From positions 2,418,001-2,482,000 of the forward strand of contig CM039006.1 in NCBI GenBank assembly GCA_017499595.2: a DNA stretch of 64,000 nt, given 5' to 3'. Within the stretch, counting starts at the first letter, position 1; the number at the start of each line of letters is the position of its first letter. Positions 6,932-20,273 of the stretch are shown piece by piece. The position numbers and the translations under genes were made by a program. The stretch is from Psilocybe cubensis (lineage: Eukaryota). Below the pieces are notes generated by a model that saw only the letters and a program-made list of their open reading frames with translations, made no database searches and was not told where the DNA came from.

Positions 6932-6952
6932 TCGGTCTATATAAAACACCGA
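6932..6952. promoter_or_regulatory. CGG-N13-CCG inverted-triplet site (proximal), STS1 promoter
   Basis: TCGGTCTATATAAAACACCGA; spacing and flanks conserved in the STS2 promoter at 15861-15881. Confidence 0.55.
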
Positions 6953-7075
6953 CACTTAGTACTTACAGATAGAGCTGAAAGGGCTTGTTTGGCAGCCTTG
7001 TGACTTGAGACCAAGATAAAAGTATTTCTGGAAGGGTAGCGATTATTTAAGATACAATAATCCGTTGACTATTTG

Positions 7076-7096
7076 GACGGCGAGAAAAATAACCCG
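7076..7096. promoter_or_regulatory. CGG-N13-CCG site (distal), STS1 promoter
   Basis: GACGGCGAGAAAAATAACCCG; exact 21-bp reverse complement at 14223-14243. Confidence 0.55.
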
Positions 7097-7769
7097 AGAA
7101 CTGCATAGCATGAAATGCGTCTTCTTCAGTTGCAGATTTCGAAGTTTTTATCAAGAATTTATCCAATGCTGTTCGCTCCCTTATCTTCGGAACCGGAAAC
7201 GCCAACAGAGGTTCTAGAAGATGCAAATTTTCATGCTGACCTTTCAGAAGGCACTGTGCCTATCTCATTGCGTCGCCGTGGCATTCAAGTGTCGTGGCAT
7301 TCAATTGTCGTTCATCCCGAGCCGGAGATTATGTCGGCGTAATAGCAACGTTGCCTCCGAGGCGTTGTAGATTGTAGATTGTTCCTCACTTACTGTTGTA
7401 TTTTTTCCCGGTAACGAGGTCATTCTTGTACAGCCTGATACTTTCTTACCTCTGCTTGATACCGACAATGGCTGCACAATGGCTCCACCCATCCAAATAA
7501 GTACAACCCGCCACATCATCCTGAACGCATTATGATGCTGTTTTGGTAAGTGGTGTCTGTGCAAAAGATCAACAAGCTCTGAATGTTCTGTGAATTATTA
7601 GGGTTGGAGAAAAATATGTAAAGCGAAAAAATCAAGGTTACTCACTACGATTATAAACCTTCAGTTGCAAGTTGTAGCCATAATAAAACGCCAGAATGTT
7701 TGAGATCGTTCATGTTGAACCTAGTTAAAGGCCGCTGGGGAAATGCGCCACTTTTGCATGGCGTATACG

Positions 7770-8373
7770 CGTCGGGATTTTCCGAATACAAGACTGACTT
7801 CTACGAAAGACCCATATCTTGCACAGATAGTCTAAATGGAATTCAACGTAGAATTTTCTCTTACATTTTGAATAAAAGATGAACCTTGAAGTTGTCTTGT
7901 ACATGAAATACCAAATCAAGATGTCAGAATGAATACCAGGTTGAATAGAAATCAAACTAAAGAAAATGCGCGTATTTAGTCAGGTAATTTGTAGCGTAAT
8001 TATCTACCCGGGTTAGCTGGAAATTAGTCTTATATCAGGGCCAAAATCAAAATATAAGACTGATTTCCAGCTAAACCTGGTAGGTACGCTACTTTACCTG
8101 ACTAATAACCTTGCAGTGTGATTTCCAGTTAACTGGAAGACTGTTTTCTATTTTGTCTTCCAGTTAAAATACGAGCATTTTCTATGGTTTGATTTCTATT
8201 CAACCTGGAATCCATTCCGACACCTTGATCTGGTACTTCATGTATAAGACAACTTCAAGGTTCATCTTTTATGCAAAATGTAGGAGAAATTTCCACTTGA
8301 ATTGCATTTAGATTATCTGAGCAAGATATGAGTCTTTCGTAGAAGTCAGTCTTGTATTCGGAAAATCCCGACG
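7770..8373. repeat. Nested foldback (long inverted repeat)
   Basis: Outer arms about 7770-7978 and 8167-8373 (about 90% identical by hand count, first 42 bp identical). Inner hairpin about 7977-8104. Mini-hairpin TTAACTGGAAGAC/GTCTTCCAGTTAA at 8129-8167. Confidence 0.92.
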
Positions 8374-16045: not shown

Positions 16046-17449
16046 ATGTCGACAGTCAACGTTCCCTATACCACCACGCAAGCCGGATCGGCAACTTCCA
16101 TTACCGGGGATCTTCCTAAATATCCGAGTCAGACCACGCATCCTCTCACCTATATTCTTCCCGATCCTTTGCGCAACTGGCCATACGAGCGCATAATCAA
16201 CCCTCATTTTGAAAGAGTTAAAGCCGAGTCTGCCGCATGGACGAAGAGCTTTGAACAATTTTCCCCCTCTGTGCAAGCTGCTTTTGATGAGGGAGTGTTC
16301 AGTAATTCATATACTTCTAAATCATTGTTGCCAAGACTCATTGGTCCCTGTCATTTTTATCCAGGTTTGGCTGCAGCTTTAGGATTTCCCACTGCCTCAC
16401 CTTGTAAATTACACTTCTTCTGATATCGGAAAGAATATGTAAAACTGAACAGAAATGTTTTATTAGGCATTCTCCGAGACGGTTGCGATTTGATGCAAAT
16501 TTATTTTATCCTGGACGATAACACTGATGCTGTAAATGCTGAAGTGGCGAGGCTACACTGCAACGCCGTCATGGAGGCCGTTATTAACCCTGAAACGCCT
16601 CGTCCAGAGGGTGAGCCAATCATCGGCGAAATTACTCGACAGTATGTCCCTTTCGCAATACTCTCGCTCAGTGAACCTATTGATTCATGGTAGAATTTCA
16701 GGTTCTGGAAGCGGGCATCTGCAAATTCTCCCAAAGCAGCCAAGGAGCGATTTATTAAGACTTGGATCGCCTATGTCGAATCCATATATTTGCAAGCAAA
16801 TCGACGGGATAAATCATATATATGTACTATCGATGAGTATATAGCTACCAGACGCGATAACATCGGAACGTATCCCACTTTCTTCTTTACTGAAATGTCC
16901 CTCGGCGTCGACATTCCCCATCACATCATGGAGCACCCTATCATTGTTCGCATGGCCAGGGACATCATTGACTTGACTACACTTGGGAATGTAATCACAG
17001 GTTTAATTTCTTGATATATGGCTAGCCGTTGCTTATTTACATCTGTAGGACATGTATTCCTACAAAAAGGAGGTTTTGGCAGGCGATACTGGTTACAATG
17101 CTGTCACCGTAGTGATGCACAACCTTCGCCTCAGCGTCGATGAAGCCATTCAGTGGATATCCAACCTTCAAGACGACTTGGTGGCCGATTTTCTTACGCT
17201 TCGGGAAGACGTTGTGAACAAAAGAAGCTTCTCTACCTATGGAGCTGAGATGGACCGTCAAATTGAATCATATATTGATGGACTTGGTCTGTATCTATTT
17301 TGTTTACTTACTATCAAATCATGACTGACCTTTTGAGAATAGGTCAGTGGATGCGCGGAGTTACAGACTGGCATTTTGAATGTGGGAGGTACTTTGGCAC
17401 CGCCGAAGGGACTGAGATACAGAGAACTCGCAAAGTTGTCATTTCCTAA
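16046..17449 (+). CDS. Sesquiterpene synthase 2 (paralog of 5388-6768)
   Basis: Same 5 intron positions as STS1. FILDDNTD, GN|DMYSYKKE, WHFECGRYFG, C-terminus EIQRTRKVVIS*. Confidence 0.93.
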
Positions 17450-17582
17450 GGTGAATATTTTCAAAAAATTTCGCCTTTGTACTTTTCAAATACAAAAACT
17501 TTGTGTATTTACTAGCCTGTATATAGTGTATTTCCTGAATTAACTGCTAGGGGAGTGGTTGTACAAAAGTCCGTCTAATTCC

Positions 17583-19885
17583 CTAATTCCAGGCTTTCTT
17601 AATTAAATCCGAAGCACGCTCCGCTACAACATACACAGGGGCCTGAGTATGCGCAACAGGAATGAGAGGCTGAAATTTTCATCAAGATCAGGACGTTAAA
17701 TAATTTAATGGCTGACTGACTATTACAGAGGCATCAACGATGCGCAGCCCGGTCGCACTCTTGACGCGGAGATCAGGGTCAACAACGCCATAATTTGCTC
17801 CTTTGGGTGACATAGAAGCGGTTCCGATACCATGCCAGACACTGGTAGTCGCTCCGCGTATGTAAGCCTTGAGTTGCTCGTCTGTTGAGCCGACTGGAGG
17901 GTTGAGCTGCTGATTGATGTAACCTTTAAAGGCTGTGGTGTTGTAGAATTGTTGGGCAAGTTTGATGGCTTGCACCATGGCATTGATATCGAACTCTGAT
18001 GTATAGTACCCTAGGTCGATATTTGGCTGTCCGAATCGATCGGCGGAATTGAGCGTTACAGAGCCTCCTGTTAGATTAATTGTGTTTTTTTAGTCCTCCG
18101 ACCACTGCAAATAAGGAGGTGGCTTACGGGAACTTGGTGACACAATGATAGCCGCCATAGAACCAAAAAGGCCAGGCTGCGTTGCAGACGAAGATGCACT
18201 CTGTAAGCAGTATTTATTGAATATTTCCAGTGCTCCATATAATAACATCTTACGAGGGGGAAAAGCTCGATATGAGGCGTGTTTGGCCCGGCCGAAGGGT
18301 CACCATACTGTGCAATAATAGGCGAATCTGAGGGTAGACGAGACCAGATGAGGAAGTTGGTGAAGGGGCTAGCATATGGCCCTGTCCTGTTTTGATTCCA
18401 TTGAGCCAAAGCCAAAGCTTGCAAAGTAGCGTTGGTGTTAATGCTGTAGAATCTCTTCTCATCACTGTGCTTGAACATGTGAATTTAAAACACATACGTG
18501 TCCCAAAATCCGTTAGAATTAACAGAGAACTGTATTGACAGGTTCGGCTGGTCCGTCAAGTTCTTTCCTACACTGGGAAGATTCAGAACGCTTGGGATAT
18601 TCAGTTTCGCCAATTCATCCTTATCCCCAATTCCAGAGTTAAGAAGGATTTGAGGGGTATTTACATTCCCTGCTGATAAGATGATCTCTTTATTGGCTTT
18701 CAGAGTAGTAGAAGAGCCTGAAGGTACGAAAAATACTGTCAGATCTGTTGAATAAATACTATTCGAATGTTGCGGACCTTCAATCTCGACAAAATTGAAA
18801 GATCCCTTTGATGACCCCGGAAGCACTCGCGTTACCTTAGTATTCAATAATACATCGAGATTTGTGCGGCCAATAGTTGACTCTGAGAGGTAAGCTGTTG
18901 CAGAGCTACTCCTTGTTCCGTTTCCGATTGTTGCCTGATTCCAGCCTACAAACTCATGTTAATATATGTATTGCGTTAAACGGATATGACTGACCAACAC
19001 CCAAAGGTACTCCAGCATTCATGTCCTTCAGAAAAGGGAAAAGTAATGGTAACTCCTCTGTGACCTTGATTACTCGAGGATCAATTGGCTTTGAACTGAT
19101 AGGTGAGCTAGTGAAGACAGTCCCATTGGATCCATGAGCAGACGGGTCAATGACTGGGCCAACACCATTTCCGTCGTAAATTGATTGAATGTATGTTTCT
19201 CCCTGAGGTAAAAATTGTTGTTAGACATGCCATTTTACATTATAGGCGTTAACTCTAACTTTGAAGAAGTACGGCAGAAGACTGTTCCAAGACCAACCCG
19301 AGTCGCCAGTGACCTTGGCCCATCGATCGTAATCATCTTTAGATCCGCGTGTGTACGCCATGCCATCTGATAATGTCGAAATATTTAGTAGATGTTACTT
19401 GCAGGTCTGGGAAACCTACTAATAGAGCTGGATCCTCCTAAAATGTGACCCCTTGGATAATTTAAAGTACGATTGTTTATGCCAGTTCCGGGTACAGTTG
19501 TATAGTTCCAATCGTAAATAGACCTCTGAAGAGGCCCAAATAACCCAGGAACAATGGCATTTAAAACACCCACATTTCTGTTCAAACTTCACTGAGTGTG
19601 TGCTACCGAAAATGCGTACTGAATACCTACGTTGGACCTGCTTCAATTAACAGCACTTTAAAGGTGCTATTTTCCGATAGTCTGCTCGCAACTACAGCTC
19701 CGGCATTCCCACCTAGACCATTGTATGGTTACTTTATTAGGTCAATGTGGTAAAAAATAAAATATACCTCCGACTACAATAAAGTCGTAACTCTTCTGTG
19801 TCAGTTGATCAATTCCTGAAATTATTGCTCCAGAAGCGCTGAGAATGGTTGAACCCAGCAGCAATGAAGCAAAGATAGTCCTCAT
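17583..19885 (-). CDS. Secreted GMC oxidoreductase 1 (AA3_2; aryl-alcohol oxidase/pyranose dehydrogenase-like)
   Basis: Signal peptide [46 protein letters not shown], catalytic-region VWHGIGT and [13 protein letters not shown]. Confidence 0.93.
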
Positions 19886-20254
19886 GATTGGTTACAATGA
19901 AAATAAGATGAGCGATTCTGAGTTCCATTAACCTCCATACCGCCCTCTCTTATAGTCTTGTCTTTCTAAATACCCGGTGGCTCTGACTATACAGCCAACG
20001 AGCGTAAATTCTAAAATTCCACGGCTGGACAACTTCGCATTGATTCACCCCTAATTTGGTGAGAAACATTAGTACATGTATAATTTTCGAGCTTTGTAAA
20101 GTTTTAGCATCCATAAGTAAGCAAGTTATTCTGTGTCCGCTAGTTAGGCTGTTACGCGGAGCAATACGTGAATATAGGTCTACGTAATACATGCCTTTGT
20201 CACGACACGGATTTTTCTAATTCTATTTTTAGAACCCGGCGCTTACTATCATAA

Positions 20255-20273
20255 CGGAACGACAGAGAACCCG
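20255..20273. promoter_or_regulatory. CGG-N13-CCG site upstream of GMC1
   Basis: CGGAACGACAGAGAACCCG, about 370 bp upstream of the ATG. Shares ACGG...AACCCG with the STS distal site. Confidence 0.45.

Follow-up and report, generated by a model that had tools for sequence, protein, structure and literature searches.

We wanted to find out whether a short spaced motif, CGG-N13-CCG, which recurs in front of several genes at a terpene synthase locus of Psilocybe cubensis, is a promoter element read by a common factor, or whether it recurs through gene duplication and chance. The analysis was performed on 64,000 nucleotides of contig CM039006.1 (assembly GCA_017499595.2, positions 2,418,001 to 2,482,000 of the forward strand); this whole stretch is called the window below. 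An earlier note on this DNA had listed five copies of the motif in the promoters of two sesquiterpene synthase genes (STS1 and STS2) and of a GMC oxidoreductase gene (GMC1), and had proposed a regulon controlled by an unlinked zinc-cluster factor. All five copies were present and matched exactly (Table 1). The best single explanation appears to be an oriented promoter element, made of CGG, a T-rich spacer and CCG and most likely read by a zinc-cluster dimer; we hold it tentatively, with somewhat less than even confidence. Paralogy combined with chance is nearly as likely. The secondary-metabolism regulon of STS1, STS2 and GMC1, in the form in which it was proposed, is not supported.

The two synthase genes lie in inverted orientation and are 81.6% identical over 1324 nt, with exons 83% identical (924/1113), introns 66% (192/291) and third codon positions 72%. 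The first ~230 bp 5' of both start codons are collinear. K-mers common to the two promoters stand at 219/231, 171/173, 143/144 and 94/88 nt from the respective start codons, and upstream identity is 54.4% over 263 aligned columns. For a footprint between paralogues, we thus had flanking genes that are paralogous and promoters that are collinear. The alignments show that an inverted duplication of an STS gene with ~330 bp of its promoter produced cubC (STS1) and PcubTS17a (STS2), which flank a gene for a MATE transporter.

Two islands of these promoters are better conserved. The distal one is a block identical at 21/21 positions, 7076-7096 being the reverse complement of 14223-14243, and the sites within it (7078-7096 and 14223-14241) are exact reverse complements of each other. 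The identical block starts exactly at CGG and ends 2 nt past CCG. Its flanks are unalignable, so we regard it as an island and not as part of a slowly decaying stretch; no other copy was found in the window at up to 3 mismatches. At the proximal site 15/19 columns are identical between STS1 and STS2, and the distances from the start codons correspond. The best 19-column windows in this region, 18/19 identical, form a peak reading TAGACCGAGTAA.TCGACAT (6920..6939, minus strand). These values of 21/21 and 18/19 compare with 54% for the promoter, 66% for introns and 72% for third codon positions, and under neutral decay an exact run of 21 nt would be expected ~0.02-0.09 times. The half-site bases of both sites are conserved at 12/12 positions between the paralogues. 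From these comparisons, two promoter islands with CGG-N13-CCG appear to be retained in both copies, and they account for four of the five sites listed earlier.

Since these four are two sites duplicated by descent, the five sites have three independent origins, as the earlier note had counted them. The third is the GMC1 site, whose spacer matches that of the STS distal site at 7/13 positions in the same gene orientation (manual count). Comparison of the GMC1 and GMC2 promoters revealed no common 9-mer and no blastn match. The STS1 distal site runs on to a third triplet, so that 7062-7096 reads CGG-N13-CCG-N13-CGG in gene orientation; the STS2 copy is without it. In two other strains all five sites were covered and none was changed among the differences listed, but the divergence is only ~0.1-0.3%, and the comparison is therefore uninformative on site conservation. 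A further run yielded short identical contigs only and no related species. Three single-base differences between strains (6974, 14123 and 15980) fall in the STS promoters outside all CGG-N13-CCG sites and are too few to interpret. A mobile element of 7.1 kb, with the two inverted copies of the 21-nt block as its terminal repeats, was also considered. This was rejected, as the outer bases form no direct target-site duplication and the arms run on into the paralogous STS genes.

A search of the whole window, in which every listed site reads CGG-N13-CCG by construction, gave 13 copies and not five. The sites missed before include one at the MATE start codon, one in a MATE intron, two upstream of an S1/P1 nuclease gene and one between the NACHT-WD gene and GMC2; three further sites fall within genes (27623, 37870, 55864). 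The promoters of STS1 and of the nuclease gene each contain a homotypic pair. The site at 12292-12310 overlaps the transcript start region of the MATE gene, because a spliced RNA contig extends to 12300. The earlier statement that no site lies upstream of GMC2, AKR, SDR or MATE was thus wrong for MATE; the other three have no CGG-N13-CCG within 400 bp upstream.

We next counted the sites in intergenic DNA, defined by a rough self-made gene map as 23,753 bases (37% of the window). Nine of the 13 N13 sites are intergenic, while shuffled intergenic segments gave 1.65±1.28. The other 30 everted spacings place 69 of their 223 sites there, on average 2.3 per spacing and never more than 6. Everted N13 ranks first of 62 spacing/orientation configurations for the intergenic count, whether the paralogous copies are collapsed or not. 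With the copies uncollapsed, some configuration reached 9 sites in 0.1% of 2000 intergenic shuffles (family-wise P 0.001). The inverted arrangement CCG-N13-CGG was not enriched in the window (10 sites, 7.45 expected).

The promoters were assessed separately in six independent segments of 400 bp (STS1, GMC1, MATE, GMC2, AKR and SDR) with 3000 shuffles and 63 spacing/orientation configurations. Everted N13 gave 4 sites in 3 promoters, and none of the 3000 shuffles matched this at N13. Four sites at any of the 63 configurations occurred in 3.4% of shuffles (7.9% for 500-bp promoters). The pattern in the form described by the earlier note, at least two sites in STS1 and one elsewhere, was reached by 0.5% of shuffles with 400-bp and 1.5% with 500-bp promoters.

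The spacers themselves are biased. Pooled over six independent sites (78 positions) and read in gene orientation, they have a T content of 53% and an A content of 14%, whereas in whole 400-bp promoters T is about equal to A. The value of (T-A)/13 was at least 0.23 in 6/7 independent intergenic N13 sites and in 7/48 controls (Mann-Whitney P = 0.004 for T-richness of N13 spacers). As controls we used 48 CGG-pair sites with spacings 8-20 in both arrangements, in which the mean T fraction was 0.286. Among all 13-mers within 600 bp upstream, 22.4% have (T-A)/13 of at least 0.23. T-rich oriented spacers are not expected from chance matches.

We considered what kind of factor could read such sites. 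Zn(II)2Cys6 proteins bind spaced triplets, namely CGG-N11-CCG for Gal4, N10 for Put3 and N6 for Ppr1 and UaY. The oleate response element bound by the zinc-cluster dimer Oaf1/Pip2 is CGG-N3-TNA-N9-12-CCG, with 15-18 bp between the triplets. To our knowledge, few cis-regulatory elements have been defined in mushroom-forming fungi. The STS islands, the GMC1 site, the MATE start and intron sites and the two nuclease sites may be instances of one oriented promoter element, in which two everted CGG triplets enclose 13 bp that are T-rich on the coding strand. It would most likely be bound by a dimer of a Zn(II)2Cys6-type activator whose gene lies elsewhere, outside the window. In that case its targets would extend beyond a regulon of terpene or other secondary metabolism.

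The candidate sites resemble Gal4-type sites in having everted CGG triplets at a fixed spacing, located 70-500 bp 5' of start codons, with more than one site in some promoters. Unlike these, they have a spacing of 13 bp, which was not found in the literature searched, and a strand-oriented T-rich spacer, a feature not required of a symmetric homodimer site; moreover, one instance coincides with a transcript start and another is intronic. With the Oaf1/Pip2 element they share everted CGG/CCG triplets, a long spacer and a sequence preference inside the spacer, but the spacing is different, there is no TNA at a fixed spacer position and the host is a basidiomycete. The retention of two islands in the cubC and PcubTS17a promoters after inverted duplication is like other paralogue-promoter footprints. 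It differs from them in that one paralogue is reported to be silent (in the accessible part of PMC12247026), and footprinting shows constraint, not the bases that are read.

A six-frame regular-expression search of the window detected no Zn2Cys6 and no C2H2 signature, although signatures split by introns would be missed. This fits the unlinked factor of the earlier note and proves nothing. The accessible part of PMC13096983 describes a potential Zn2Cys6 factor in a different P. cubensis terpene cluster.

Several results weigh against a zinc-cluster element. In the whole window, dinucleotide-preserving shuffles (n = 100) gave 7.32±2.75 sites per 64 kb, and the observed 13 was reached in 4/100 of them; the shuffled mean corresponds to one site per 8.7 kb, in agreement with the rate of one per 7-8 kb estimated in the earlier note. 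Among everted spacings of 0-30, N2 was found 15 times, N13 and N20 13 times each, and N6, N10 and N12 11 times each. As 2 of the 9 intergenic sites are paralogous copies, the honest count is 7, and with paralogues collapsed some configuration reached 7 in 8.6% of the 2000 shuffles (P 0.086). Real non-coding DNA is also more uneven than shuffled DNA: 5/61 other configurations reach 5-6 intergenic sites. In the six-promoter analysis, sites in three or more promoters were obtained at some configuration in 13.6% (400 bp) and 21.2% (500 bp) of shuffles. The motif fixes six bases only and its spacing was picked after looking; the T-rich spacers, too, were noticed after looking, so that signal is to be discounted. 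The proximal conservation peak takes in only the CCG half-site and 14 nt downstream of it and is offset from the motif. The earlier observation that both STS blocks are exactly the motif thus does not hold for the proximal block. The MATE sites, one intronic and one at the start of the transcript, have positions unusual for an upstream activating site. The genes that bear sites form no single functional group: they encode synthases, a transporter and two secreted enzymes, an oxidase and a nuclease. GMC2, AKR, SDR and a third terpene synthase gene have no site within 400 bp. According to the literature on STS1 and STS2, the only site-bearing genes for which we compared expression, the two are not co-expressed (PMC12247026, accessible part). 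Finally, neither the notation CGG-N13-CCG nor papers combining related 13-bp-spacing terms were found in the literature searched.

In sum, N13 ranks first, yet its excess after paying for the choice of spacing is marginal. Corrected for spacing and orientation, this excess has a family-wise P of 0.03-0.09; the earlier note had regarded three independent matches as standing out. The scan of spacings, here confined to the 64-kb window, is divided in the same way between an intergenic count that leads all configurations and a window-wide count that N2 and N20 equal. Of the proposed regulon, what remains is a possible shared element, for which the rank of N13, the kept STS half-sites and the T-rich spacers speak; the expression of the two synthases (as far as PMC12247026 could be consulted) and the mixed gene set speak against it.

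The strongest alternative is that the STS sites are undecayed ancestral promoter sequence and that the GMC1, MATE and nuclease matches are random, with no common factor. We regard it as a serious possibility. The modest excess in the window, the equal frequency of N2 and N20, the collapsed P value, the ease with which shuffles place sites in three promoters and the lack of co-expression (PMC12247026, accessible part) would all be in line with it. The expectation quoted above for a 21-nt run is our own arithmetic, based on a neutral identity of 0.66-0.72 over ~330 bp, and may be counted on the same side, as may ten exact runs of 21-42 nt in the STS coding alignment. Paralogy plus chance accounts less well for the first rank of N13 among intergenic configurations with or without collapsing, for the orientation and T-richness of the spacers, and for a 21-nt block that forms an island between unalignable flanks.

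It is unlikely that the STS islands are functional while the sequence recognised in them is not CGG-N13-CCG and the GMC1 match is a coincidence. Here an HMG-box, homeodomain or C2H2 regulator of fruiting bodies would read TAGACCGAGTAA.TCGACAT at the proximal island and part of the 21-mer at the distal one. The offset of the proximal peak from the motif would be explained, and other blocks without the motif are conserved between the STS promoters as well, namely CAAGCCCT, a TATA-like AAAGGAGT at about -90 and TACAAT..ACTCC, one of them adjoining the start codon. The lack of a Zn2Cys6 signature in the window would also be in line with such a regulator, as would a gene at 3245-4322 (plus strand) for a SOX/MATA-like HMG-box transcription factor (SOX-11 is its best match, E 1e-12), ~1 kb away from the cubC 3' end. 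Linked to the locus, this gene is a candidate for a regulator from outside the zinc-cluster class. What argues against recognition of another sequence is that the distal block has exactly the borders of the motif on its CGG side and nearly so at CCG, that both blocks have equal half-sites, equal spacing and equal T-rich polarity, and that by inspection no alternative motif is common to both blocks beyond these features. Least likely of all is that oriented T-tracts with GC-rich borders keep the promoters nucleosome-free and that CGG and CCG are incidental: oriented poly(dT) tracts are established in nucleosome-depleted regions of yeast, and the spacer composition and the occurrence of sites upstream of unrelated gene types would suit this, but whole promoters are not T-biased, the spacers of control CGG pairs are not T-rich, and a nucleosome-excluding tract needs no fixed length of 13 bp.

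Expression of the two synthases bears on the proposed zinc-cluster element in another way. In section 2.1 of PMC12247026, cubC is reported to be 7-fold up in fruiting bodies; the accessible text of the same paper, citing an earlier study, calls PcubTS17a '(near-)inactive' in mycelium and fruiting bodies. As far as these statements go, sharing of sites does not give co-expression, and possession of both sites does not suffice for expression, since STS2 has them and is near-silent. The same source places 9.3 kb with a transporter gene between cubC and its copy PcubTS17a, which matches the layout of STS1, MATE and STS2 in the window. The word 'promoter' does not occur in the accessible text of PMC12247026 or PMC13096983, and no Psilocybe terpene promoter element is mentioned there.

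One difference between the paralogues is the position of the distal block, which reaches to -328 in STS1 and to -1824 in STS2. Of the STS2 distance, 957 bp are an AT-rich insert. It is absent in two other strains, in whose contigs 14458 is followed directly by 15416. In depth it exceeds the neighbouring sequence 5-15x, and divergent contigs of high depth are present; it contains a decayed tRNA-like gene at 14852-14923 (minus strand; Rfam, 37 bits). It looks like a strain-specific insertion of mitochondrial DNA. The distal site of PcubTS17a stands 0.85-1.8 kb from the start codon as compared with 0.3 kb in STS1; it could have been displaced by ~0.5 kb of extra sequence and, in the source strain, by the mitochondrial-type insert.

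Taking these points together, CGG-(T-rich 13 bp)-CCG might mark the promoters of cubC, the MATE gene, a secreted aryl-alcohol-oxidase-like gene and the S1/P1 nuclease gene. A zinc-cluster factor with a spacing undescribed in characterised members would read it, possibly as part of a fruiting-body programme, and PcubTS17a would be silent through displacement of its distal site. As a whole, this combined reading is doubtful.

If the element is real, it would give direct access to the way in which cubC is activated in fruiting bodies, and it could serve as a bait for its regulator. The displaced element of the paralogue, in strains with and without the 957-bp insert, would then be a natural experiment on enhancer distance. 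If the matches are due to chance, they are a warning that matches to a six-base spaced motif, when the promoters are duplicates, represent fewer independent events than their number suggests.

Table 1. CGG-N13-CCG sites outside the three gene-internal matches, with the genes and the insert discussed in the text. Positions are those of the window; distances are given from the start codon.
Feature	Position	Strand	Location or basis
STS1 (cubC) proximal site	6933..6951	-	-165..-183
STS1 distal site (7078-7096) in 21-nt block	7076..7096	-	-310..-328
STS2 distal site (14223-14241) in 21-nt block	14223..14243	+	-1806..-1824; -849..-867 in strains without the 957-bp insert
STS2 (PcubTS17a) proximal site	15862..15880	+	-167..-185
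GMC1 promoter site	20255..20273	-	-369..-387 from start codon 19886
MATE site	12292..12310	-	-3..-21, 3' of TATA-like run
MATE intron site	11309..11327	-	intron 11272-11413; RNA joint 11271->11414, CT..AC ends
S1/P1 nuclease upstream site	28321..28339	+	-486..-504 from start codon 28825
S1/P1 nuclease upstream site	28737..28755	+	-70..-88 from start codon 28825
Site in 2.2-kb NACHT-WD/GMC2 intergenic region	35189..35207		1.44 kb 5' of GMC2 start codon; spacer not T-rich
STS1 = cubC sesquiterpene synthase	5391..6768	-	six exons (exon map; protein identity)
STS2 = PcubTS17a, STS1 paralogue	16047..17446	+	head-to-head with STS1; sequence comparison and PMC12247026 (accessible part)
MATE transporter gene, between STS1 and STS2	8424..12300	-	spliced RNA contigs
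GMC1, aryl-alcohol-oxidase-like GMC oxidoreductase	17688..19886	-	start codon 19886
AT-rich insert, 957 bp, 34% GC	14459..15415		between distal block and STS2

The identity of STS1 was established from an exon with 99% identity to a P. cubensis protein named sesquiterpene synthase cubC; identity to a second P. cubensis synthase was 85%. According to the accessible part of PMC12247026, four other Psilocybe species have no homologue with more than 61% identity. In metagenome data, a scan based on six aligned synthases gave 205 pattern matches, none of which was a relative. The closest likeness of GMC1 is to aryl-alcohol oxidases and its N-terminus, read from the translation, is signal-peptide-like, so that it looks like a secreted enzyme of the aryl-alcohol-oxidase type.

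The third terpene synthase gene lies at ~52400-53900 (plus strand) and belongs to the trichodiene-synthase family (PF06330). A P. cubensis entry matches it with 100% identity, and a protein of P. cyanescens is 77% identical. A long open frame at 25123-26501 (minus strand) resembles phosphatidylserine-decarboxylase-type enzymes by reading of the translation alone. Together with GMC2, AKR, SDR and this decarboxylase-like gene (25.1-26.5 kb), the third synthase may perhaps correspond to one small cluster of PMC13096983, as far as its accessible part describes it.

In the MATE gene, RNA contigs covering 9821-11414 contain long skips of 281, 168, 192, 577 and 142 nt, whereas the other introns of this gene measure 50-81 nt. 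One further RNA contig (10697-11186) falls within the skip of 577 nt, which suggests alternative splicing or a retained intron. In DNA contigs of two strains we observed depth spikes of 4-15x the neighbouring values, with loose ends, at 7622-8543 and 12693-13153. These flank the MATE gene and are probably fragments of dispersed repeats.

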